Shown: positions 19,237 to 34,511 of the stretch, piece after piece
Layout: the number at the start of each line of letters is the position of its first letter
Position numbering within the stretch: the stretch's first letter is position 1
Source: Clostridia bacterium
Lineage (GTDB): Bacteria; Bacillota; Clostridia; JAAYHZ01
Assembly: GCA_050950825.1 (NCBI GenBank)
Contig: JBMNIH010000010.1
Location: 160,001-224,000 of the forward strand
Direction of reading: 5' to 3'
DNA: 64,000 bases
The notes under the pieces: generated by a model
What the model saw: only the letters and a program-made list of their open reading frames with translations
What the model was told of the DNA's origin: nothing
Database searches by the model: none
Translations under genes and position numbers: made by a program

Positions 19237-20405
19237 AGAAGAAACGATTGATTGTTATGCTTTCCTTGCTTCTTTTTTTGACCGGGTGCAGCAGCTTGCC
19301 CCATAAAATACCCTTAGAAGATATCCAAGCCATCTTAATTGCCGGTATCGATGTGAACGAGGGTATGGTGGAGCTGACCGTCATGAGCGTGGGTAGCCAA
19401 CCGGGATCCGGTGACAAGAAGGGAGAGGAAGCGATAAAAATTTACGAAGCGACCGGAAAAACGGTGTTTGAAGCCAAGCAGAACTTAAGCTTGTATAACG
19501 ATAAGCACTTAATATGGGCTCATTTGGAATATATCATAATCGGAGAGGATACGGCTCGAGCGGGGATCGCACCCCATTTGGATTTTTTCTTAAGGCATCA
19601 TGAAAACCGTTTGACGGACGATCTTATCGTAGCGAAAAATATGACGGCAAGAGAGTTCATACGTTCGACGGACACGGCTCAGCCGAAGATAAATGAAAAA
19701 ATACGCCATTTGTTTAAGGATGCGGAAATCAAATCCACCATCCGTAATGTGAATTTAAAGACTTGGGCGTTAAAACATCTTTCGGACACCATGTACGTCA
19801 TTTTGCCCGTTTTAAGTACAACGGAAAGAACGCATAAAGAAAAAGAACAACAAGAAGAGGGCACTCAAAAAAAAGATATTCGGACCGACGGATATGCCGT
19901 ATTTAATCGAGAAGGAAAACTGATTGATTATGCTTCCTTGGAGTATTCCCGAGGGATCAATTGGATTACCGATGAAATTCATTCCACGGCGGTGGTAATC
20001 GAACCGGAATCCGGAGCCCAATTATCCGCACAAATCATACGATCAAAAACCAAATTGGAAATAGACGAAGAAGCCGTATCTTTGAATGTGGATATTAGCT
20101 TGATATTCAATATTCCGGAATACACGGGCAATAAGGAACTGTACGATTTGGAATACGTAGGGTTAATCAAAGGAAAGCTGGAGGATATGATCGAAAAAGA
20201 AGTGATCGATACGGTAAAATACTTGCAAAGCTTGGATGCCGATGCCATTAATATCGGTAATGTCTATTACCATAAATATCCGAAAAGGTGGCCCATGATG
20301 AAAGATATGTGGGAAGAGAAATTCAGGCAAATGAACGTGAACGTAAGCGTTAGGTCTACCTTAAGAAATACGTATAACATCCTTAACCCCATGGAGAAAG
20401 AGTGA
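19233..20405 (+). CDS. Ger(x)C germination lipoprotein
   Basis: Lipobox LTGC, AGID, G.TVFEA, YIIIGE..AR motifs. Confidence 0.88.
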   Translation: MKKKRLIVMLSLLLFLTGCSSLPHKIPLEDIQAILIAGIDVNEGMVELTVMSVGSQPGSGDKKGEEAIKIYEATGKTVFEAKQNLSLYNDKHLIWAHLEYIIIGEDTARAGIAPHLDFFLRHHENRLTDDLIVAKNMTAREFIRSTDTAQPKINEKIRHLFKDAEIKSTIRNVNLKTWALKHLSDTMYVILPVLSTTERTHKEKEQQEEGTQKKDIRTDGYAVFNREGKLIDYASLEYSRGINWITDEIHSTAVVIEPESGAQLSAQIIRSKTKLEIDEEAVSLNVDISLIFNIPEYTGNKELYDLEYVGLIKGKLEDMIEKEVIDTVKYLQSLDADAINIGNVYYHKYPKRWPMMKDMWEEKFRQMNVNVSVRSTLRNTYNILNPMEKE

Positions 20406-20409
20406 TTGT

Positions 20410-20616
20410 ATGGTCCTTGTGTTGGTTCTTTTAATCGGTTTAAGTATTTATGACATCCGATTGTTGAAAAAAGAAAACGACAAAAAGCAGATGATTATGT
20501 ATTGTATTTTTGCACTGGCGACCTTGGCCTTCGGAATATGGTATATCACCGGAACCATCGAACACAGCTTCTGTTATGAATTGTTTCACCTTTTGGGAAT
20601 TAGCGATAGAAACTGA
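20410..20616 (+). CDS. small two-TM protein (possible ger D-type subunit)
   Basis: 68 aa, two hydrophobic helices, directly after gerC. Confidence 0.6.
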   Translation: MVLVLVLLIGLSIYDIRLLKKENDKKQMIMYCIFALATLAFGIWYITGTIEHSFCYELFHLLGISDRN

Positions 20617-20724
20617 TAAAAATTTATCAAGTACCTTTTCATCTCCATTTGAATATGATATACTTGGGTTTATCGTTAAACAATGAATTTCAATTTTGGC
20701 TTATAAATCCGGGAGGTGAAAAGA

Positions 20725-20847
20725 ATGGAGTCAGGCGGAAGTAGTTCCGGCAGTGGAGGTATACGATTACGTATAAAGAAAAAGGCACCGAAGGAGTCTC
20801 CTTTGGCTCTGTTCTTTTGTGCTTCTTGTATTTGCCATGTCGGTTAA
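20725..20847 (+). CDS. putative mgtE leader peptide (40 aa uORF)
   Basis: GGGAGGTG RBS; MESGGSSSGSGGIRLRIKKKAPKESPLALFFCASCICHVG*. Confidence 0.55.
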   Translation: MESGGSSSGSGGIRLRIKKKAPKESPLALFFCASCICHVG

Positions 20848-20989
20848 CCTCTTTTCTTTTATACGTTTTCAATCGATTCTTTCGCTGTCCCTGCCTAACC
20901 GTTATACGGAAAGTATTATGAAATAAAGCAAAAAAGCGTTTTGCTTTATCGGAATTTTTTTGCTTAAAAAATGAAAGGAGGACAGCCCC

Positions 20990-22324
20990 ATGAGTGAATG
21001 GATTTTGGATTTAATTAATAGAAATAAATATGCCGAAGTCCGAAACATGCTTATTGAAATGAACGTGGTGGACATCGCTCAGATCGTAGAAGAAATCGAT
21101 AAGGATAAGCTTTTAATCCTGTTTCGCATATTGCCGAAGGAAATGGCGGCAGGAGTTTTTTCATACATACCGTCGGAGCTTCAGGAGTTTATTGTCGAAT
21201 CCATTACGGATAAAGAAATCAAAAATATTATCGATACTTTGTTTCTTGACGATGCCGTCGACTTTTTGGAAGAAATGCCGGCGAATGTGGTCAAGAGGGT
21301 TTTAAGAAACACGGATCCCGAAACGAGAAAGCTGATCAATCAATTTTTGAATTATCCGGAGGATTCCGTCGGCAGCATCATGACCATCGAATTTGTGGAC
21401 TTAAAGAAGGAAATGACGGTCCGCGAAGCGATTCAACACGTAAAGGAAACCGGGGTGGATAAAGAAACCATTGACAATTGTTATGTTCTGGATAACAACC
21501 GTATTTTGGAAGGCGTCATATCCATCCGTAAGCTGATTTTAAGCGACGATAACGAAAAGCTAGAGGACATCATGGAAACGGATATCAAGTCGGCGAACAC
21601 CCACGACCACCGAGAAGTTTTGGTGTCCCTGTTCAAAAAGTATGACTTGCTATCGCTGCCGGTGACGGATAACGAATACCGTTTGGTAGGGATTGTTACC
21701 GTTGACGACGTAGTCGACATTATGGACCAAGAAGCTACGGAAGACTTTCAATTGATGGCAGCCATGCAGCCCTCGGAAAAGGAATATTTGAAAACCGGCG
21801 TACTGGAGTTGGCTAAAAACCGTATTTTTTGGCTTCTAATTTTAATGATTTCCGCTACATTTACAGGAAGTATTATTAGCAAGTACGAAGATGCACTGCA
21901 AGCGGTGGTGATACTTGCATCCTTTATTCCCATGATTATGGATACCGGTGGTAATTCCGGTGCTCAGTCGTCTACCATGATTATTCGAGGTCTCGCATTA
22001 GGAGAAGTAAAACCAAATGATATTTTAAAAGTGATTTGGAAAGAGCTAAGAGTCGGTATTTTAGTGGGAATTGTTTTATCTTCCGTTAATTTTATAAGGC
22101 TTTTAGTCCTTGTGAAGGTAGATACTTTTATCGCTTTAACCGTAAGTATAACCTTGATGCTTACTGTGGTTGTAGCAAAGCTTGTGGGAGGAACGCTCCC
22201 CTTAGCCGCTAAGAAGGTAAAGCTGGATCCGGCCATCATGGCGAGTCCTTTGATTACAACCATTGTGGACGCCGTTGCCCTTTTGCTGTATTTCCGATTT
22301 GCAACAATTTTGTTGGGGATATAA
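20990..22324 (+). CDS. mgtE: magnesium transporter MgtE
   Basis: N-domain, two CBS domains, DTGGNSGAQ, DPAIMASPLITTIVD. Confidence 0.97.
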   Translation: MSEWILDLINRNKYAEVRNMLIEMNVVDIAQIVEEIDKDKLLILFRILPKEMAAGVFSYIPSELQEFIVESITDKEIKNIIDTLFLDDAVDFLEEMPANVVKRVLRNTDPETRKLINQFLNYPEDSVGSIMTIEFVDLKKEMTVREAIQHVKETGVDKETIDNCYVLDNNRILEGVISIRKLILSDDNEKLEDIMETDIKSANTHDHREVLVSLFKKYDLLSLPVTDNEYRLVGIVTVDDVVDIMDQEATEDFQLMAAMQPSEKEYLKTGVLELAKNRIFWLLILMISATFTGSIISKYEDALQAVVILASFIPMIMDTGGNSGAQSSTMIIRGLALGEVKPNDILKVIWKELRVGILVGIVLSSVNFIRLLVLVKVDTFIALTVSITLMLTVVVAKLVGGTLPLAAKKVKLDPAIMASPLITTIVDAVALLLYFRFATILLGI

Positions 22325-22331
22325 AAAAGTG

Positions 22332-22361
22332 TTGACATGGAGGCTTTGTTCGTCATATAAT
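22332..22361 (+). promoter_or_regulatory. sigmaA promoter of aro operon
   Basis: TTGACA-N18-TATAAT. Confidence 0.75.
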
Positions 22362-22390
22362 ATCCTAAATTTATTAAGAGGTAAGGTTTT

Positions 22391-22516
22391 ATGGAAACTT
22401 ATCGCCCGGAAAGAAGAATAAAGTTAAATTTGAATAGCTACTTTAGCTTCTTTACCTATGCCTTTTTTGCGTTTTATTTCTTTTTCTTTAGAACCGGGCG
22501 AATCGTAAGACCTTAG
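22391..22516 (+). CDS. Phe/Tyr-rich attenuator leader peptide (41 aa)
   Basis: AGAGGT RBS; METYRPERRIKLNLNSYFSFFTYAFFAFYFFFFRTGRIVRP*. Confidence 0.85.
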   Translation: METYRPERRIKLNLNSYFSFFTYAFFAFYFFFFRTGRIVRP

Positions 22517-22534
22517 GTTTTGGTTAAGAAAATC

Positions 22535-22568
22535 AAAGCGGGAGGCGGATTCAGCCCCCCGCTTTTTT
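22535..22568 (+). terminator. attenuator terminator of aro operon
   Basis: AAAGCGGGAGGC/GCCCCCCGCTTT stem (1 mismatch) with T6 run. Confidence 0.85.
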
Positions 22569-22672
22569 GATACATCCGGTTCGGATCTTCGTCAAAACCG
22601 GTTGCCCAAAAAACAGGGGGAGTCGAATCGAAAAAAGCCTTCCGAAAGATAATAAGTGAAGGAGGACACCCC

Positions 22673-23680
22673 ATGATATTAGTTTTAAAAACCAATGTGG
22701 AAGAAAAGAAGATCGAGGAATTGATCCGGACGTTAGAAAGCAGTCAAATACGTGTGGAAAGAACCAAAGGCGTGGACTACACCATTTTGGCGTTAATCGG
22801 CGATACACGGTCGGTTAATGAAGGGACCATACTCAATTCCGACATTGTTCACCGAATCATTCATGTACAAGAACCGTACAAGCAAGCGAATCGGCTTTTC
22901 CATCCGGAGAATACGACGGTCAAAGTAGGCGACTGCACCATCGGAGGAGGAGAATTTGCCGTTATTGCAGGTCCTTGCTCCGTAGAAAGCGAGGAACAGA
23001 TTTTGACCGTTGCACGGGAAGTAAAAAAATCCGGAGCAAAATTCTTACGAGGCGGCGCATACAAACCTCGAACATCCCCCTACAGCTTCCAAGGATTAGG
23101 GGAGCGGGGATTGGATTTGCTCAAGCTGGCAAAGGAAGAAACCGGCTTGCTGATTGTCTCGGAAATATTGTCAACGGACCAATTGGACCGTTTTGTCCGG
23201 GATGTGGACATCATCCAAGTAGGCGCTCGAAACATGCAGAATTTTTCCTTGTTAAAAGAACTGGGTAGGGTCCAAAAACCGGTTATTTTAAAGAGGGGAA
23301 TGTCGGCCACCATGGAGGAATGGCTTATGTCGGCGGAGTATATTATGGCGGAGGGGAATAAAAACGTCATTTTGTGCGAAAGAGGAATAAGAACATTCGA
23401 AACCTACACCCGCAACACCTTCGATATCAGCGCCATACCCATGATTAAGCACTACAGCCATTTGCCCATAATCGCCGACCCCAGCCACGCGACAGGAAGG
23501 TGGTGGATGGTAGAGCCTTTGGCAAAAGCGGCGGTAGCGGCGGGAGCCGACGGACTCATGGTAGAGGTGCATCCGAATCCGGAAAAAGCTCTATCCGACG
23601 GAGCACAGTCTTTAACCCTCGAAAGCTATAAAAAATTAATGAATGAAATTAATTTAATGATCGGAAAATTGGCGTGTTAA
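22673..23680 (+). CDS. aroF: DAHP synthase (type I-beta) with N-terminal regulatory domain
   Basis: [26 protein letters not shown] motifs. Confidence 0.95.
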
Positions 23681-23715
23681 AATACGGATATACGGTCTTT
23701 GATGAGGATATGAAC

Positions 23716-24786
23716 ATGAAGGAATTGAATTTAACGGCAACAGACAGCCGTTCCGTGATATTAATTGAAGAAGGGCTGCTGCATCGATTACCGGAGCTTG
23801 TAAGGAACCTGTTTCCTTTGTCTAAGGTTTTAATCGTGACCGACGAAAACGTGGAGAAGCTATACGGCAAAAGCGTTTATGAATCCTTGGCACGCTCCGG
23901 CATCCCTTGCGTCAAAAAGGTATTGCCTTTCGGGGAGAGGACAAAATCCTTTGAATACTTGAATATAATCTTGGATTGCTTGGGAGAAAACGGCTTTACG
24001 AGAAGCGATGCGGTAATGGCCTTAGGAGGAGGAGTCATAGGAGACTTATCCGGCTTTGCCGCCGCCTTATGGCAAAGGGGAATGAAATTAATCCAAGCTC
24101 CGACAACCCTTCTGGCCCAGATTGACAGCAGCATCGGAGGAAAGACCGCCATTGACACCAAATGGGGGAAAAACACGATAGGCGCTTTCAAGCAGCCGGA
24201 CTTGGTTTGCATCGACCCTCAAGTCTTGACAACCCTTTCGAAAACGGACTTTTCGGCCGGTATGGCGGAAATGATCAAGTATGCCTGCATTCGCGACAAA
24301 GAGATGTTCCGTATTTTAAAAACGCATTCGGACAATATATTCCCGCACCTTTCGGAGCTCATTCTTCAAGCATGCAAGATTAAGAAAGAGGTTGTGGAAG
24401 AGGATTGCTTTGATACGGGATTACGTATGATTTTAAATTTCGGCCATACCGTCGCCCATGTTTTGGAAGGGCTGAACGATTTCGAGGGCTTGCCTCACGG
24501 GTATGCAGTGGCTTTGGGTATGATCGACATAACCAAGCGGTCGGAAGCCCTCGGGTGGACTCTTTCCGGAACGGCGGATCAAATACAAAAGCTGTGTGAC
24601 GCCTACGGACTTCCTACGGAAATGCCTGCGGTAGACAAGAGAGCGGCCGTTTCCTTTTTGTTAAGAGATAAAAAAGCCAGAAGCGGTCAAATGAATTTGG
24701 TGTTGTTAAAAGAAATCGGTTCCTGCTTCATTAAAAAGATGGACGTAGGGGATGCGATACAATTTCTCGGTTGGGAGGAAAAATGA
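23716..24786 (+). CDS. aroB: 3-dehydroquinate synthase
   Basis: GGGVIGD, PTTLLAQIDSSIGGKT, LNFGHT; start codon uncertain (23674/23710/23716). Confidence 0.94.
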   Translation: MKELNLTATDSRSVILIEEGLLHRLPELVRNLFPLSKVLIVTDENVEKLYGKSVYESLARSGIPCVKKVLPFGERTKSFEYLNIILDCLGENGFTRSDAVMALGGGVIGDLSGFAAALWQRGMKLIQAPTTLLAQIDSSIGGKTAIDTKWGKNTIGAFKQPDLVCIDPQVLTTLSKTDFSAGMAEMIKYACIRDKEMFRILKTHSDNIFPHLSELILQACKIKKEVVEEDCFDTGLRMILNFGHTVAHVLEGLNDFEGLPHGYAVALGMIDITKRSEALGWTLSGTADQIQKLCDAYGLPTEMPAVDKRAAVSFLLRDKKARSGQMNLVLLKEIGSCFIKKMDVGDAIQFLGWEEK

Positions 24787-26054
24787 TGCAGGTTACCGTT
24801 TATCCTTCAAAGTTAAAAGGAACCCTTTTTGTGCCTCCTTCGAAAAGCCAAGCCCACCGTCTGTTATTGGCGGCGGTACCGTCAAAGGAACCTTGTGTCA
24901 TTGATTCCGTCGCTTTCTCCGATGATATATCGGCAACCGTCGGAGCCATGGAGGCATTGGGTAAAAAAATCGATATGAAAAAAGGTGATTTCGAATATCG
25001 TTTGACGGTTCAAGAGGGAACTTTGACAAAAAACCCCGTGATAAATTGCAAAGAATCCGGTTCCACCTTACGCTTTGCCATTCCCTTGGCGCTTGCCGTA
25101 GCCGGCGAAGCGACATTTACGGGGGAGGGCCGTTTGGGGGAAAGGCCTTTGAACGTTTACAAGGATTTGCTTGAGAAACAGGGTATTTTATGGGAAGCGG
25201 ATGTTAAAGGACTGCCTTTACACGTTAAAGGCGAATTGATGCCGGGTATTTATTCGGTTCCGGGCGATATCAGCTCTCAATTTATTACGGGGCTGTTGCT
25301 GGCGCTTCCTTTGCTTAAAGGGGATTCGGTGCTTACGATTGAAGGCGTACTTGAATCGGCGCCTTACGTGGACATAACCGTCGACGTGTTAAAAAAATAC
25401 GGTGTCCGCATCACGGAAGAGGAACCGTACCGAATTTACCGAATTCCGGGAGGTCAAACCTTCGGGAACGTGAACGCCATGGTGGAGGGGGACTGGTCCC
25501 AAGCCGCTTTTTATATATTGAGCGGATTATTCGGAAACGGCGTATTGCTAAAAGGATTGGATAAAGATTCATACCAGGGGGATAAAAGGATCGTTTTCTT
25601 TTTACGTTCCATGGGAGGAGATATCCGATGGACGGATGAAGGACTAATGGCGTACCCTTCGGAATTAAAAGGTGTCGACATGGATATTTCCCATTGCCCG
25701 GATTTGGCTCCGGTGTTGGCGCTGGCTTGTTCTGTAGCAAAAGGATGCAGCCGCATATCGGGAGCAAAAAGGCTTCGGATTAAAGAATCCGACCGCATCG
25801 AATCCGTGGGAAACACATTGAAGGCTTTAGGTGCGAAGATAGAATGCTTGGACGACGGATTTTTCATTGAGGGATCCGAAGCTTTAAACGGCGGCAAGGT
25901 CTTTTCGTATAAAGATCACCGAATTGCCATGATGGCGGCTGTTGCCGCTTGCGTATCCGAAGAGCCGATTGTGCTGGAAGGAGCGGAAGCCGTTAAAAAA
26001 TCGTATCCGAACTTTTGGGAGGATTACAAAATGCTTGGAGGGATCGTAGAATGA
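24783..26054 (+). CDS. aroA: EPSP synthase
   Basis: PPSKS..HR, ESGSTLRF, SSQF, KESDR, DHRIAM motifs. Confidence 0.95.
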   Translation: MMQVTVYPSKLKGTLFVPPSKSQAHRLLLAAVPSKEPCVIDSVAFSDDISATVGAMEALGKKIDMKKGDFEYRLTVQEGTLTKNPVINCKESGSTLRFAIPLALAVAGEATFTGEGRLGERPLNVYKDLLEKQGILWEADVKGLPLHVKGELMPGIYSVPGDISSQFITGLLLALPLLKGDSVLTIEGVLESAPYVDITVDVLKKYGVRITEEEPYRIYRIPGGQTFGNVNAMVEGDWSQAAFYILSGLFGNGVLLKGLDKDSYQGDKRIVFFLRSMGGDIRWTDEGLMAYPSELKGVDMDISHCPDLAPVLALACSVAKGCSRISGAKRLRIKESDRIESVGNTLKALGAKIECLDDGFFIEGSEALNGGKVFSYKDHRIAMMAAVAACVSEEPIVLEGAEAVKKSYPNFWEDYKMLGGIVE

Positions 26055-27133
26055 GCAGCCAATGGGGTCAAAAATTGAAAATATTTTTATTCGGGGAATC
26101 CCACGGAGACGGAATCGGCGTGGTGATGGACGGTGTTCCGCCCGGCATCAAGCTGGATATGTCTTTTATACGAAGGGAAATGGAAAGGCGGTCCCCGGGA
26201 AGGCACCGATGGTCCACGCAACGTAAGGAAGCGGATGCTCCCGTTATCCTAAGCGGAGTGTACAACGAGCATACCACGGGTACTCCCTTATGCGCCGTTA
26301 TATACAACAAAGACCAAAGATCCCAAGATTACAAAAAGCTTGACCGGATACCGCGGCCCGGCCATGCCGATTACACCGGTTCTATTCGTTATAAGGGGTT
26401 TAACGATCCGAGAGGAGGAGGCCACTTCTCGGGGCGATTGACGGCGCCTTTGGTTTTCGCGGGGGCCGTAGCCCAGCAAATCTTGCATAAAGAAGGTATA
26501 TACGTAGGCGCCCATATTAACAGAATCGAACAGGTAACGGACCGGGAGATTGACAAGACGAACATTTCCGTGGAAATGATTCAAAATTTAAAAGCGAAGG
26601 ATTTTCCCGTTATGGATGATGAAGCGGGAGAGCAAATGAAGGATAGAATTTTGAACGCCTTCAACGGCTTGGACTCCGTAGGAGGGGAAATTACGACGTT
26701 TGCCGTAGGCGTTCCTGCGGGAATCGGAAGCCCAATTTTCGATGCTTTGGAAAGCAAGATTGCGTCCTTGGTCTTTTCCGTACCGGCGGTAAAAGGTCTT
26801 TCTTTCGGTACCGGATTCGATTTGGCTCTTATGAGAGGAAGCGAGGCGAATGATCCGTTCCGGATGGAAGGAGAAAAGGTTGTTACTTTGACCAACCATA
26901 ACGGAGGCATTTTGGGAGGCATCTCCAACGGTATGCCCATTGTTTTTAAGGCCGTAATCAAGCCCACCGCATCCATTGCCTCCGTTCAAAAGACCGTCAA
27001 TCTTTCCACAGGGGAAAACTGCGATATTTCGATTCACGGAAGGCACGACCCTTGTATTGTGCCGCGAGGAGTACCGGTGATGGAAGCCTGTATGGCTTTG
27101 GCGCTTGCGGATGCGATTTTGTATGAAAGGTAA
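26051..27133 (+). CDS. aroC: chorismate synthase
   Basis: GESHG, PRPGHAD, GRHDPC motifs. Confidence 0.96.
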   Translation: MSSQWGQKLKIFLFGESHGDGIGVVMDGVPPGIKLDMSFIRREMERRSPGRHRWSTQRKEADAPVILSGVYNEHTTGTPLCAVIYNKDQRSQDYKKLDRIPRPGHADYTGSIRYKGFNDPRGGGHFSGRLTAPLVFAGAVAQQILHKEGIYVGAHINRIEQVTDREIDKTNISVEMIQNLKAKDFPVMDDEAGEQMKDRILNAFNGLDSVGGEITTFAVGVPAGIGSPIFDALESKIASLVFSVPAVKGLSFGTGFDLALMRGSEANDPFRMEGEKVVTLTNHNGGILGGISNGMPIVFKAVIKPTASIASVQKTVNLSTGENCDISIHGRHDPCIVPRGVPVMEACMALALADAILYER

Positions 27134-27143
27134 GGGATGATAA

Positions 27144-27980
27144 GTGAAAGTGGGGTATATGGGCGTTCCCGGTTCCTATACCGAGGAAGCGGCCGTCGGT
27201 TATTTCAAAAACGAATACGAATTAACGGGTTATCCGAGTTTTCACGATGTTGTCCATAGGTTGGAAACCAAGGAAATTCGTTACGGGATTCTGGCAATCG
27301 AGAACTCTTCCACCGGAAGCGTTCATCAAACCTTGGATTTAATACGAGAAAAAAACCTCTACATCACGGGAGAAGCCATACAAAAGGTGGAGCATTATTT
27401 AATGGCGGTAAAGGGGTCAAAGCTGTCCATGATCAAAAAGGTGATTTCCCATCCCCAAGGCTTGGAGCAGTGCGGCAGCTATATTCGTAAAAACGGCTGG
27501 GAAATCGGGACCCATGTCAACACCGCCGCTGCGGCAAAAGAAGCGGCTCAAAAAAACGATCCTTACACGGCGGTTATCGCATCGAAACGGGCGGCAAGCA
27601 TTTACGGGTTGGAAATATTGGACGAAAAAATTCAAGACAACAATCATAACTACACGCGATTTGTGGTTTTGTCCGGCACAAAAGAAATCACGGAAGGAGC
27701 GGACAAAATCAGCTTGGTTTTTATCGTAAAAAACGTTCCCGGATCCTTGTATGCCGCCATTCAAGGCTTTGCCGAAAACGGAGTGAACTTGATAAAGCTG
27801 GAATCAAGGCCGATATGGGGCGAGCCTTGGCATTACTTTTTCTTCATGGACTTGGAAGGAAGCTTGGAGGACGAAAGAATTAAAAGAGCCCTTTCCTATT
27901 TGGAGATTCACTGCAAGTCCTATCGAATATTGGGAAACTACAAAAAAGCGTCTTTTTCCATGGAGGTAAAAAATGAATAA
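27144..27980 (+). CDS. pheA: prephenate dehydratase
   Basis: IENSSTG, SHPQ, TRF, ESRP (ACT domain). Confidence 0.94.
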   Translation: MKVGYMGVPGSYTEEAAVGYFKNEYELTGYPSFHDVVHRLETKEIRYGILAIENSSTGSVHQTLDLIREKNLYITGEAIQKVEHYLMAVKGSKLSMIKKVISHPQGLEQCGSYIRKNGWEIGTHVNTAAAAKEAAQKNDPYTAVIASKRAASIYGLEILDEKIQDNNHNYTRFVVLSGTKEITEGADKISLVFIVKNVPGSLYAAIQGFAENGVNLIKLESRPIWGEPWHYFFFMDLEGSLEDERIKRALSYLEIHCKSYRILGNYKKASFSMEVKNE

Positions 27981-28791
27981 CAAATACGGACTTATCGGGT
28001 ATCCTTTAGGCCACAGCTACTCTCCTTGGATACACGATGCCATATTCCGGCTTACCGGTCGGAAAGGAGAATATTCCCTCATCGAGATTACGGAGGATCA
28101 AATCCCTTCCTTTTTTGAAAAGCTGCATCGAAGCGGTTTGGAGGGCTTGAACGTTACCATACCCTACAAGCAAAGGGTCATACCGTACATGGACGAAATG
28201 TCCTCCGAAGCCCAAAGGATCGGTGCCGTAAATACGATTTTGATAAAAGAGGACCGCTTGATCGGGTATAACACCGATTATATCGGATTTATGGAGCTTC
28301 TTTCTACCTTATGCGATGACTTATCCGGTAAAAAGGTGCTGATTCTAGGAGACGGCGGCTCCGCAAGAACGGTATATACCTGTATGTGCGATTTAAAGGT
28401 GTCCGTATGCTATATGGCGTCAAGGAAACCTAAGAAAAGCCGAATGCTTTTTAAGGAAGCATTCGTCATTTCCTATGAGGAGGTATACGATTTGTCGGAC
28501 CTATATTTAACGGTGAATTGTACCCCGGTGGGCATGTATCCGAAGAAAGACGCATCTCCTTTGGATTTGGATAGAATAAAGCCTTTTCCGTATTACGTCG
28601 ATTTAATTTACAACCCTTCCGAGACCTTGCTGATGAAGCATGTGAACCGGACGGGAGGAAAAAGCGTAAACGGACTCTATATGCTGGTGTCTCAAGGCGT
28701 TGCCGCCCAGGAAATATGGACAAACCGGACAATTCCCAAGGATATAACGCAAAAAGTATTTCAAATAATGAAAGAGGAAAAGTCGCTATGA
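27973..28791 (+). CDS. aroE: shikimate dehydrogenase
   Basis: HSYSP, NVTIPYK, GAVNT, NTD motifs. Confidence 0.95.
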   Translation: MNNKYGLIGYPLGHSYSPWIHDAIFRLTGRKGEYSLIEITEDQIPSFFEKLHRSGLEGLNVTIPYKQRVIPYMDEMSSEAQRIGAVNTILIKEDRLIGYNTDYIGFMELLSTLCDDLSGKKVLILGDGGSARTVYTCMCDLKVSVCYMASRKPKKSRMLFKEAFVISYEEVYDLSDLYLTVNCTPVGMYPKKDASPLDLDRIKPFPYYVDLIYNPSETLLMKHVNRTGGKSVNGLYMLVSQGVAAQEIWTNRTIPKDITQKVFQIMKEEKSL

Positions 28792-29222
28792 AAATATTGG
28801 TTTTAAACGGACCGAATTTAAACATGTTGGGTGTGCGAGAGCCGGATATTTACGGAAAAGAAAATTATGCTTCCTTGTGTAAAACGGTGGAGGACGAAGC
28901 GAAAAGATTAGGAATTCAGGTGGATATAAGGCAGAGCAACCATGAAGGTCAGCTGGTGGATTGGATTCAGGAGGCTTTCGGTGTTTTTGACGGAATCGTA
29001 ATCAACCCCGCCGCCTATACCCACTACAGCATTGCCATCTTGGACGCCTTAAAGGCCGTGGGTTTGCCTGCCGTGGAGGTTCACATCAGCGACATCCATA
29101 AAAGGGAAGACTTCCGAAAACATTCCGTCACCGCACCCGCTTGCATCGGGCAGATCAGCGGCAAAGGAATATACGGATATGTTTTAGGCATTCGGATGTT
29201 GTATGACCATATTAACGGATAA
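28788..29222 (+). CDS. aroQ: type II 3-dehydroquinate dehydratase
   Basis: NGPNLNMLG.REP.IYG, QSNHEG, EVHIS motifs. Confidence 0.96.
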   Translation: MKILVLNGPNLNMLGVREPDIYGKENYASLCKTVEDEAKRLGIQVDIRQSNHEGQLVDWIQEAFGVFDGIVINPAAYTHYSIAILDALKAVGLPAVEVHISDIHKREDFRKHSVTAPACIGQISGKGIYGYVLGIRMLYDHING

Positions 29223-29258
29223 AAAGGTGCCGGATTTCTTTTATCCGACACCTTCGCT

Positions 29259-29684
29259 TTATTCGGATATGGCAAACATTAAAGAACACTCCGCCACAAG
29301 CTCGCCGTCAACCGTAGCCCTACCATTCCCAATGCCTATGTTTCCCATAATATTTTCGATTTCGGTTTCAAGGATTAACAGGTCTCCGGGAACCACTTTG
29401 CGTACGAATTTGGCGTTTTTTATTCTGCCTAAGAAAGCAAGCTTTCCCTTCATCTCATCCATGGTCATCAGCGCCACCGCTCCGGTCTGGGCGAGGGCCT
29501 CTAAAATCAATACTCCGGGCATCACCTTTACGTCCTTGAAATGACCTGCAAAAAACCACTCGTTTCCGCTGACGGCTTTTCGAGCCGTTGCGGATTTTCC
29601 GACCTTCAGTTGGTCTACGCGATCAATCATTAAAAAAGGTTCTCGGTGAGGCAGTATTTCCTTTATCTGTTCAATTCCAAGCAA
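29259..29684 (-). CDS. fabZ: 3-hydroxyacyl-ACP dehydratase
   Basis: LPHR.PFL.ID, F.GHF....MPGVL..EA.AQ motifs. Confidence 0.96.
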   Translation of the reverse strand: MLGIEQIKEILPHREPFLMIDRVDQLKVGKSATARKAVSGNEWFFAGHFKDVKVMPGVLILEALAQTGAVALMTMDEMKGKLAFLGRIKNAKFVRKVVPGDLLILETEIENIMGNIGIGNGRATVDGELVAECSLMFAISE

Positions 29685-29686
29685 CT

Positions 29687-30922
29687 TTATTCTCCCTTTC
29701 TAATCAAAAGCGTACTGTTGTGCCCCCCGAAGCCGAAGGAATTGGACAAAGCATATTCCGTGTTCATGGGACGAGCTTTGCCTTTGACGTAGTCCAAGTC
29801 GCATCCTTCTCCTTCCTTGATCAAGCCGATAGTAGGAGGAGCCATTCCGGCCTCCAGGGCCTTCACCGTTAGCAACGCTTCGACGGCACCTGCGGCACCC
29901 AGCATATGGGCCGTCATGGACTTGGTGGAGCTGACCAACAGCTTTTTGCTGTGCTCTCCGAAGCATTTTTTAATGGCATTGGTTTCGATAATGTCGTTTA
30001 AAGGAGTTCCGGTACCGTGAGCGTTGATGTAACCTATTTGTTCTTTATCAATGCCGGCTTCTAATATGGCCAACTCCATGGCTCTTGCTGCCCGGATTCC
30101 TTCAGGCATAGGGGCGGTTACGTGGTACGCATCGCATGTTTGACCGAAGCCGACAATTTCACCGTAAATTTTGGCGTTTCGTCTTTTAGCCGATTCTTCG
30201 CTTTCCAGCAACAAGAAAGCCGCTCCTTCTCCCATGACAAAGCCTTGTCGTTCTTCGTCAAAAGGAATGCATGCTCTTTTAGGATCCTTGCTTTCCGATA
30301 ACGCCTGCATTTGATGAAAGCCTTGCACGGCCAAATCCGTTAATACCGCTTCGGATCCTCCCGCCAAAGCGGCATCCAATCGGCCGTCCTTTATGGCGTA
30401 GTAGGCGTGGCCAATGGCATCCGTACCGGAGGAGCATGCCGAAACGACGGCGAAACAAGGTCCTTGCAGCGAAAGCTTGATGGCGATATTCCCCGCAGCA
30501 ATGTTGATGATGCTTTTGGGAATGAAGATAGCCGATACACCGATCGGACCTTGGCTCATCAGCAGGCGGTCTTGTTCGCATATGGTTTCCAAGCCCCCCA
30601 TGCCGCTTCCCAATACGACACCGACACGGTTTTTATCCAAATCGCCGTCATGTATACCGGCGTCATTCCAAGCTTCAAAAGCCGCCGCGAGGGCAAATTG
30701 TGTGAATAAATCCAACCGTTTCGCTTCTCTTTTGCTGACGGGTAAAACCGATTCAAAGTCTTTTACTTCTCCTGCAGCGGTTATACCCGTTTTTTCGGTG
30801 TCAAATTTTGTTGCGACATCGATGCCGCAAACACCTTCTACAGCCGATTGAAATGCGGTACTTGCATTGTTACCGATAGGGCAAACGGTCCCTAAACCGG
30901 TAATCATAACTCGATGCTTCAT
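29687..30922 (-). CDS. fabF: beta-ketoacyl-ACP synthase II
   Basis: SACSSG, NAHGTGT, AHMLGAAG, SFGFGGHN motifs. Confidence 0.95.
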   Translation of the reverse strand: MKHRVMITGLGTVCPIGNNASTAFQSAVEGVCGIDVATKFDTEKTGITAAGEVKDFESVLPVSKREAKRLDLFTQFALAAAFEAWNDAGIHDGDLDKNRVGVVLGSGMGGLETICEQDRLLMSQGPIGVSAIFIPKSIINIAAGNIAIKLSLQGPCFAVVSACSSGTDAIGHAYYAIKDGRLDAALAGGSEAVLTDLAVQGFHQMQALSESKDPKRACIPFDEERQGFVMGEGAAFLLLESEESAKRRNAKIYGEIVGFGQTCDAYHVTAPMPEGIRAARAMELAILEAGIDKEQIGYINAHGTGTPLNDIIETNAIKKCFGEHSKKLLVSSTKSMTAHMLGAAGAVEALLTVKALEAGMAPPTIGLIKEGEGCDLDYVKGKARPMNTEYALSNSFGFGGHNSTLLIRKGE

Positions 30923-30973
30923 ATGATTCATTCTCCTCAATTTCCAATAAAATCACACGCTTACTTCATGCGT

Positions 30974-31708
30974 TTATATAACCATGCCGCCGTCTACGAC
31001 AATCACCTGTCCCGTTATATACGAGGCGGCGTCACTGCACAAAAAAGCTACCACGCCGGCCACATCCGAAGGAGTGCCGAAGCGTTTCAAGGGGATACGG
31101 TCGAGCATATTCTTTTTAATGTCTTCGGGCAAAACATCGGTCATCGGCGTTTGGATGTATCCAGGAGCAACCGTATTAACGCAGATTCCTCTTCGAGCCG
31201 CTTCTTTTGCTACGGATTTACCGAATCCGATTATGGCGGCCTTGGATGCGGCGTAATTGGCTTGCCCGATGTTACCGGTAATGCCTACAACCGACGATAT
31301 GTTGATGATTCGACCTTGCCTTGCTTTCACTAAATGAGAAAGGGCTTCACGAGTGCAGTAAAAGCAGCTGTTCAGATTGGCTTTCATGACTTTTTCGAAT
31401 TGTTCGTCTTCCATTCTCATTAAAAGTGCGTCGTCGGTGATTCCGGCATTGTTAATCAAGGCATATAATCCTCCTAGCTCAAAGACGCAGGATTCCACAA
31501 CATTCTTGCAGTCATCGGATCCGGACAAGTCGCCTTTTAGCAAGGCGGCTCTTCTTCCTAAGCTTCCGATTTCGTTATATAGGCTTTTGGCTTGCTCTTC
31601 ACCGCTTCTGTAGTGGATGCCGATATCAAAACCGGATTTGGCAAGGGTTAATGCGATTTCTCTTCCGATGCCTCCGGATGCGCCGGTAACCAATGCAACC
31701 TTTGTCAA
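30974..31708 (-). CDS. fabG: 3-oxoacyl-ACP reductase
   Basis: [20 protein letters not shown] motifs. Confidence 0.95.
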
Positions 31709-34216: not shown

Positions 34217-34235
34217 ACTCTTCAAATTTATAAAG

Positions 34236-34511
34236 GCTAGGATGAAGACGAGTATATTCACAAGAATTTTACAGAAAGTTTGCGGTTGATGGAAGCAAAT
34301 AAATTCCGAATATACGAATCCCTTCGGAGCCGTTGTCCCGAAATCTTTCTTCATAAGAAGAGCAGGAGAGTAAGGGCAAACGGGAAGTCCCGTTACAGAC
34401 AAAGGTTTTGTTAGAGACTGGTTAATTGGTTCGAATAGCGGACAAAGAAAGGGATATAACGATTGGAAAATTATACCCCGTCTCTTCACATACGAAGAGG
34501 CGGTTTTTTTT
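34236..34511 (+). promoter_or_regulatory. T-box leader with atypical antiterminator; specifier probably AUC (Ile)
   Basis: GATGAAG..AGTA, AGAAAG, GGTTGATGGAAG, GAATCC-CTTC-GGAGC, stem II with AGTA/GAA, CCGTTA F-box, terminator CCGTCTCTTC/GAAGAGGCGG-T8. Confidence 0.8.

Follow-up and report, generated by a model that had tools for sequence, protein, structure and literature searches.

A probable phenylalanine-sensing leader-peptide attenuator ahead of the aroF operon in an uncultured lineage of Clostridia

In the enterobacterial pheL-pheA and trpL systems, a short open reading frame (ORF) with regulatory codons is combined with a terminator and alternative helices, and the position of the ribosome decides the outcome. 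A leader of comparable construction was analysed here in a 64,000-nucleotide (nt) stretch of DNA from a Clostridia bacterium (GenBank assembly GCA_050950825.1, contig JBMNIH010000010.1, positions 160,001 to 224,000; this whole stretch is called the window, and positions are counted in it unless another contig is named), where a 41-codon ORF rich in Phe codons stands before an operon of aromatic amino acid genes. From the sequence evidence, we propose with a probability of about 80% that this leader controls transcription of the aroF-aroB-aroA-aroC-pheA-aroE-aroQ operon as a ribosome-mediated leader-peptide attenuator, responding to Phe and probably also to Tyr. The locus shares with pheL and trpL the short ORF, the run of regulatory codons, the terminator and the alternative helices (the diversity of pheL is treated in PMC3082878). 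Unlike in these systems, the leader of the window is longer, mixes Phe with Tyr and has no Rfam leader match at E values up to 1; moreover its regulatory codons are located between the two strands of the hairpin closing the leader, and the genes placed under control comprise the whole common pathway together with pheA, beyond pheA alone.

Other described systems are found directly ahead of aroF. In Corynebacterium glutamicum, the aroR leader before the aroF operon carries a Phe-Tyr-Phe motif (PMC4046766, Mentz 2013; review PMC11802643) and, according to the section of the review dealing with it, Phe limitation raises the transcription of the aroF operon via ribosome stalling, Tyr supply being without effect (PMC11802643, citing Neshat 2014). 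Both loci have an aromatic-codon leader peptide ahead of a 3-deoxy-D-arabino-heptulosonate 7-phosphate (DAHP) synthase gene and follow the same pathway logic, whereas, in a comparison made by description, C. glutamicum belongs to the Actinobacteria and its motif has three aromatic residues against 13 of 17 in the window. In Acholeplasma and in environmental DNA, the element uORFC-13-1 lies before aroF with a promoter, a ribosome-binding site (RBS), a start codon and a Phe-encoding run of U; it is immediately upstream of an intrinsic terminator, and the excerpt describing it proposes an attenuator sensing Phe incorporation (PMC8632094, Brewer 2021). Again compared by description, it resembles our locus by a Phe-coding upstream ORF (uORF) and a terminator before aroF and differs from it, in the terms of that excerpt, by its restriction to Acholeplasma and unknown organisms, with 24 representatives and "at least one" Phe (PMC8632094). 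In Clostridioides difficile, itself one of the Clostridia, transcription has been found experimentally to end prematurely in the 5' untranslated region of aroF, the mechanism being absent from the passage concerned (Fuchs 2021, PMC8237595), and a different candidate riboswitch is reported, in the relevant section of another study, ahead of aroF-type operons of Lactobacillales (PMC4448216). As of 2010, by the account given in one passage of PMC2965389, leader-peptide systems had been known only in Proteobacteria and Actinobacteria until a His leader was described in bacilli. A description of a widespread clostridial aromatic leader was not found in the full-text literature, a search outside of which lay subscription journals and supplements.

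The features of the locus are the following.

22332..22361, plus strand: sigma-70-type promoter, TTGACA and TATAAT with an 18-nt spacer, 12/12 consensus matches in a consensus scan.
22376..22381, plus strand: Shine-Dalgarno (SD) sequence AAGAGG of the leader, nine nt 5' of the ATG at 22391.
22391..22516, plus strand: leader ORF of 41 codons with a TAG stop and Pro as the final sense codon.
22439..22489, plus strand: regulatory codon run, codons 17-33, with 10 Phe and 3 Tyr, Trp, Leu, Ile, Val and Met being absent.
22382..22409, plus strand: 5' strands of the predicted leader-closing hairpin, the outer one (22382-22394) spanning the start codon and the inner one being TCGCCCGG at 22402-22409.
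22494..22516, plus strand: region 2, in which CCGGGCGA (22494-22501) is predicted to pair with 22402-22409, and 22504-22516 with 22382-22394.
22500..22552, plus strand: candidate antiterminator in three parts (outer helix, middle helix, inner hairpin), from RNAfold.
22535..22568, plus strand: intrinsic terminator, a G+C-rich stem, a loop with GAUUCAG, then six T.
22673..29222, plus strand: putatively controlled operon aroF, aroB, aroA, aroC, pheA, aroE, aroQ, from Pfam matches and ORF coordinates.

Transcription is expected to start near 22368. Translation of the leader ORF gives a peptide with 10 Phe, 4 Tyr and no Trp, in which codons 17-33 read YFSFFTYAFFAFYFFFF. When all ORFs of 10-80 amino acids on both strands of the 3.55-Mb genome were ranked by the number of aromatic residues per 17 amino acids, this ORF was the first with 13, the runner-up having 11. 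The peptide has no family match in Pfam and NCBIfam searches. The original prediction, made from the letters of the DNA, had already placed a promoter at the leader, an RBS with a 41-codon uORF at 22391-22516 and 10 Phe plus 3 Tyr in codons 17-33, and the consensus scan, the SD at 22376-22381 and the 41-residue translation bear this out; the frame 22391-22516, which it gave as missing from the ORF track, is present in the mechanical ORF list. A translatable ORF with an SD, a cluster of codons for an end product and a terminator ahead of the first structural gene, by which an attenuator is recognized, are all found at this locus. A second aromatic leader candidate in the genome (C3:272810-272980, peptide stretch YGYFFVW) was set aside on sequence inspection alone.

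The leader is kept in the lineage of the window. Two relatives were compared, G001 from the same genus (aroF 84% identical) and G002 from the same family (aroF 81% identical); the two best metagenome loci (aroF 85% and 81%) have upstream regions identical to those of G001 and G002, so that the lineage amounts to three distinct sequences among those searchable. In the three-species alignment, TTGACA, TATAAT, the ATG, the aromatic run, the stop and the terminator are preserved in both relatives, which is the conservation on which the original prediction had staked itself. GAGGTA at the SD is invariant, all three leaders end in Pro-stop, and the relatives show TTT/TTC and Tyr/Phe exchanges within the aromatic run. 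A 12-nt block, ACCGGGCGAATC, is the same throughout in the three species, the wobble positions of its codons included, and the terminator stem with its loop GATTCAG is likewise invariant. The loop of a terminator is normally free to vary; the invariance of this one, together with that of a complementary GAATC in the ORF, points to a possible pairing between the two.

The terminator itself is situated 18 nt past the leader stop and 104 nt ahead of aroF. Its core pairs G22538-C22546 with G22554-C22562, A-U pairs extend the stem and the T run occupies T22563-T22568. With a fold of -20.0 kcal/mol (z -4.04; 0/200 shuffles equally stable), the terminator announced earlier at 22535-22568 is well founded. 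A scan for hairpins followed by a T run finds it on the plus strand at -17.9 kcal/mol, and a consensus terminator scan reports the same hairpin on the minus strand only, because the plus-strand scan counts the AAA/TTT pairs into the stem and leaves too few T in the tail.

In the folding models, the strongest structural signal is a hairpin closing the whole leader ORF, rather than the antiterminator. This hairpin (22382-22516) connects the start-codon region with the stop-codon region and TCGCCCGG with CCGGGCGA, and the purine-rich first half of the ORF pairs in it with the U-rich Phe codons. Its minimum free energy (MFE) structure reaches -39.1 kcal/mol (z -4.28; 0/200 shuffles as stable), and the equivalent hairpins have z-scores of -4.49 in G001 and -3.43 in G002 (0/200 shuffles each). 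The helix 22402-09/22494-501, which the original prediction had singled out, is part of the MFE structure of the whole leader, and the alignment fold (alifold) of the three sequences retains the hairpin, inner helix included, as well as the terminator, with 40 pairs in all. Region 2 overlaps the 5' strands of the candidate antiterminator, and a helix able to sequester the antiterminator strand in the untranslated leader, as an attenuator requires, is thus provided by the closing hairpin in all three species.

The region between the terminator and aroF was considered for another mode of action, in which the leader would act mainly on the translation of aroF or on mRNA stability, by SD masking or processing, rather than on termination. 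There, GCCUUCC (22637-43) can pair with the aroF SD, GAAGGAGG (22658-65), and GGGGG (22616-20) with CCCC (22669-72); both pairings belong to the MFE structure and both motifs are present in G001. The fold is however no better than that of shuffled sequences (z -0.76, 40/200 as stable), the segment is deleted in G002, and a strong, conserved terminator with a T run is present, so that we hold a mainly post-transcriptional action to be highly improbable. The pairings within 22616-22672 (plus strand) may form a second, translational layer of control.

To place the leader in a wider frame, the 400 nt upstream of aroF were examined in a sample of 190 aroF-relative loci (30 from the genomes of relatives, 80 from named genomes and 80 from metagenomes), of which 179 offered 350 nt or more of upstream sequence together with a match beginning in the first five residues, and 170 were left after dropping identical upstreams. 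These loci are mutually related and were selected for their resemblance to a single aroF; the counts hold for this sample alone and independence is overstated by the family statistics, which is to be reckoned with the points against our reading discussed below. A uORF with at least 7/10 aromatic residues was found in 48/170 loci in sense and in 1/170 in antisense orientation, dinucleotide-preserving shuffles giving an expectation of 0.9. At the level of at least 8/10, which is the score of the window leader, 23 sense and 0 antisense uORFs were counted for an expectation of 0.0. As in the window, where the terminator is also directly upstream of aroF, 64 of the 68 uORFs with at least 6/10 aromatic residues have a hairpin (-8 kcal/mol or better) and a T run before this gene. 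An in-frame start with an SD-like motif was present in 37/48 uORFs, and the motif accompanies 41/104 in-frame starts vs 4/54 out-of-frame starts. The leader ORFs are self-structured family-wide (mean z -2.41; 32/48 at z -2 or lower; 5/48 above 0). Carriers include Pelosinus, Clostridium tetanomorphum, Thermotaleaceae, Tissierellaceae, Selenomonadales/Acidaminococcaceae, Moorellales, Oscillospiraceae and Christensenellaceae-type metagenome-assembled genomes and Vulcanibacillus; the sole Peptostreptococcaceae locus of the sample (L045) scored below 5/10 aromatic. The only Rfam matches at the gathering score in 20 related loci were two T-boxes, one each in L048 and L068, where they are on the opposite strand.

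Taken together, these data are in agreement with the core of the original prediction, a peptide attenuator over an aro operon, which all the comparative tests run support at the level of sequence. Its view that Firmicutes seldom have such an attenuator at their aromatic genes is incorrect in the case of aroF, considering the 48/170 loci and the systems described in the cited parts of PMC8632094, PMC4046766 and PMC11802643. The mechanism is a textbook one and such leaders are common in Clostridia-type bacteria.

The same counts bear on two further explanations. In the first, the leader RNA would be bound by a protein or a ligand, in a riboswitch-like or TRAP/PyrR-like manner, the U-rich tract and the hairpins being the sensor and the ORF incidental. 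The very stable and conserved leader hairpin would fit such a sensor, as would the invariance of ACCGGGCGAATC down to its third codon positions, and candidate aromatic-amino-acid riboswitches have been proposed upstream of Lactobacillales aroF-type operons, in the section of PMC4448216 mentioned above. We nevertheless consider it very unlikely, since an open frame, an SD and a start codon exist in all three species, SD-like motifs favour in-frame starts across the family (41/104 vs 4/54), shuffles that keep the U-richness expect 0.9 uORFs vs 48 observed, the TTT/TTC and Tyr/Phe exchanges retain the aromatic reading, and Rfam is without a match at the leader. In the second, the ORF would encode a small hydrophobic protein with its own terminator, aroF being served by read-through or by another promoter and no amino acid being sensed. 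A 20-residue hydrophobic stretch of the peptide could indeed cross a membrane, Lys-Lys is frequent after the aromatic run in distant relatives and a peptide motif is conserved. The cores of the aromatic uORFs are, however, made up of 59.3% Phe/Tyr/Trp (a quarter Tyr) and 5.9% Leu/Ile/Val/Met, unlike membrane helices; all the aromatic uORFs counted are directly before aroF (in the other genomes, only aroF upstreams were scanned), no other small ORF of the window genome reaches such a density, and the consensus scan found no promoter-like site between the terminator and aroF. This makes a membrane protein the least probable of the explanations considered.

The conserved peptide motif, G[FY][FY]A[FWY], occurs in 15/68 aromatic uORFs vs 0.2 expected from residue shuffles (L002, L003, L005, L008, L034, L037, L041-L044, L052, L068, L114, L115 and L117). 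It is often followed by Lys-Lys, and its Gly codon varies at the third position (GGT, GGC, GGG, GGA). G001 and G002 carry it as GFFAF, and the window reads YAFFAF, its Gly being lost. This conservation looks like selection on the peptide; an alternative reason at the RNA level is that G-C pairs of the leader hairpin come from the Gly and Ala codons. The motif leads to a third explanation, an arrest peptide or effector-sensing leader, in which the nascent chain would slow the ribosome from the exit tunnel or at the Pro-stop, and the terminator would read this stall. The conserved non-aromatic residues with their variable Gly third position argue for it, as does the Pro-stop end of all three lineage leaders. 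A C-terminal Pro slows termination, and TnaC, with which free tryptophan causes stalling, likewise ends in Pro-stop. On the other side, the window's own leader is without the motif Gly, the Gly/Ala codons provide the few G-C pairs of an otherwise A-U-rich hairpin, so that an RNA-level reason is available, and the middle antiterminator helix uses the CCN-UAR sequence as its 5' strand; with this geometry, stalling on the stop codon would favour termination over read-through, and 13/17 aromatic codons are far above the need of an arrest motif. We thus regard an arrest peptide as distinctly unlikely. Because the G[FY][FY]A[FWY] core is conserved and the leaders of the window lineage end in Pro-stop, a hybrid may also be conceived, in which the aroF aromatic leaders of Clostridia, Negativicutes and some Bacilli would be one old homologous family with the peptide under selection, working both by hungry codons and as arrest peptides. 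If this were true, the nascent chain would join in the stalling or slow termination inside the ribosome; we consider this proposal unlikely, and put it forward tentatively.

Coming back to the attenuator sensing Phe through its codons, its read-through state would depend on the candidate antiterminator. The outer helix of this structure joins GAAUC (22500-04, in the ORF) to GAUUC (22548-52, in the terminator loop), the middle helix joins CCUU (22511-14, including the first base of the stop codon) to GAGG (22542-45), and the inner hairpin is formed by 22517-25 and 22531-39. Across the three species, the middle helix consists of the CCN-U of the last codon and stop with GAGG or GCGG in the 5' arm of the terminator, and the topology is common to the window, G001 and G002 (-13.6, -12.9 and -13.2 kcal/mol). 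The pairing 22511-25/22531-45, given as the antiterminator in the original prediction, is the MFE structure of the local segment (-11.3 kcal/mol) and stands as regards this fold and the shared topology; its stability is not better than that of shuffled sequences. When a ribosome footprint of 33 nt was masked with the A site on Phe33, the antiterminator formed in a transcript ending before the 3' arm of the terminator, and with the A site on the stop codon it was lost and the terminator formed, so that the masked folds agree with the behaviour predicted beforehand, an antiterminator freed by stalling on the Phe/Tyr codons and blocked by a ribosome at the stop.

The MFE structure of the window has 15 pairs to the 5' arm plus loop of the terminator vs 8.8 expected (z 1.55), and in the wider family such pairs exceed those of the shuffles in 51/63 loci (mean z +0.79). 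The maximal uninterrupted helix with the terminator averages 6.92 base pairs (bp) in the 63 loci vs 5.87 in shuffles; it attains at least 8 bp in 20/63 loci and beats 95% of the shuffles in 14/63. In this test, the 5' strand lies within the uORF in 50/63 loci and the 3' strand gets to the terminator loop in 54/63. The helix sequences are unrelated between lineages, for example TAATGAGT/ACTCATTA, TTCTAAGG/CCTTAGAA and GTTTCTGCT/GGCAGAAAC. It was also observed that, in distant relatives (L008, L034, L035, L037, L044, L052, L059, L068 and others), a leader segment situated roughly 25-65 nt 5' of the leader stop codon shows complementarity to the terminator, in its upper stem and loop; these segments vary by lineage, AAATGAGT/ACTCATTT being a further example, and were described as a covarying antiterminator. 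For the family, these models support a design in which an ORF strand binds the terminator at its upper stem and loop; the window would fit this design in form only.

Several results weigh against the attenuator reading, in the first place for its antiterminator. The antiterminator z-scores are only -0.78, -1.06 and -0.70 in the three species, no better than shuffled sequence, and when only the 5' arm of the terminator is taken as partner, the duplex has z-scores of +0.57, +1.26 and +0.50 in the same species; over the 63 loci, the mean z of this duplex is -0.28, with 6/63 at -1.64 or below and 25/63 above 0. In the window, no uninterrupted helix with the terminator exceeds 5 bp, which 78/100 shuffles attain as well. 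In the alignment fold, double changes are seen in 4 of the 40 pairs, and with an unfavourable covariation term of +4.11, derived from three sequences only, the support from covariation is poor. The closing helix has the regulatory codons between its strands and not within the 5' one, unlike in the classical trp scheme, and when the A site is placed on codon 18 or 26 with no second ribosome, the closing helix persists in the masked folds, therefore the model may need queued ribosomes or a late stall. As for public RNA, 12 short contig pieces with a depth of 2-5.6 were obtained from four metatranscriptome runs (X1-X4, shares 0.20-0.28); none of the pieces spans 22469-22607, hence none bridges the terminator.

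With these points in mind, the following sequence of events may be proposed; it is by inference that the leader is taken to be translated, the ribosome to stall at aromatic codons, the candidate structure to be the antiterminator and the system to respond to Phe/Tyr. Transcription would begin near 22368, and a ribosome would load at the SD and ATG (22376-22393) and translate the 41-codon leader. With Phe-tRNA and Tyr-tRNA charged, it would run to the Pro-TAG end, where its footprint would cover region 2 and the stop segment (22494-22516); after its release, this same segment would be taken up by the very stable leader-closing hairpin. In both of these charged-tRNA states, the terminator at 22535-22568 would form and a transcript of about 200 nt would end at the T run. 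In the case where charged Phe-tRNA, and probably Tyr-tRNA too, would be scarce, the ribosome would stall in the aromatic run and hold the closing hairpin open, leaving 22500-22525 available for pairing with the loop and the 5' arm of the terminator while the 3' arm is still to be transcribed, and RNA polymerase would read through into aroF. Read-through probably needs a late stall or queued ribosomes. The leader would thus work like a classical attenuator with an altered layout, the regulatory codons being placed between the strands of the closing helix.

The genes placed behind the leader are consistent with this reading. The operon combines the common shikimate pathway with the Phe branch, which matches the Phe-dominated leader: aroF encodes a DAHP synthase with an FXD (ferredoxin-like N-terminal) domain, pheA a protein with prephenate dehydratase (PDT) and ACT domains and aroQ a type II dehydroquinase, and the frames overlap or abut. 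Upstream of the leader, mgtE ends at 22324. The genome has 3.55 Mb in 11 contigs and a G+C content of 43.7%. A second DAHP synthase gene, 54% identical to that of the window, is located on another contig directly upstream of tyrA (G000 C4:622425-624571, minus strand, locus L191), and no aromatic uORF, T-box or Rfam match was found upstream of it. At the aro operon, Rfam searches at E up to 1 over 20000-31000 gave no T-box, Phe_leader, Trp_leader or other match, and at the gathering score the whole window contains two tRNAs only; the genome has 14 T-box matches, 10 of them above the cut-off and none at the aro operon. One T-box match in the window, at 34230-34488 (plus strand; 75.6 bits, under the family cut-off of 93), precedes an operon for an acetolactate synthase small subunit, a ketol-acid reductoisomerase, a LeuA-type synthase and an aconitase-family (leuC-like) protein. 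Given this sub-cut-off match at the branched-chain operon, branched-chain genes of this genome would be under a T-box and its aromatic genes under a leader peptide.

Other elements were observed around the operon. A hairpin CCGGUU...AACCGG at 22576-22601 (plus strand), right after the leader terminator, is part of the MFE structure, and G001 and G002 have, as judged by eye, hairpins of other sequence at the equivalent site (GCAGU...ACUGC and CGUAU...AUACG); alifold on the spacer between the terminator and aroF, where the alignment is poor, recovered only a trivial U/A helix and not the hairpin at 22576-22601. At the other end, an inverted repeat CGGATAAAA...TTTTATCCG at the aroQ stop (29216-29247) looks like the operon terminator. 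A 113-amino-acid ORF after aroQ (29203-29544, plus strand) was rejected as a gene, being without a family and antisense to a 141-amino-acid ORF beside fabF; it is probably spurious.

For the organism, these results provide a testable regulatory model in an uncultured Clostridia lineage, in which the common pathway and the Phe branch would be under a Phe-dominated leader, the Tyr branch, with the second DAHP synthase and tyrA, being elsewhere in the genome and without such a leader. Genome annotation misses these leaders because no Rfam, Pfam or NCBIfam model captures them; an antiterminator 3' strand that usually reaches the terminator loop and a leader ORF that is usually self-folded offer handles both for a family model and for the mechanism. 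For the Firmicutes, the locus is one more indication that aroF is commonly controlled by leader-peptide attenuation.

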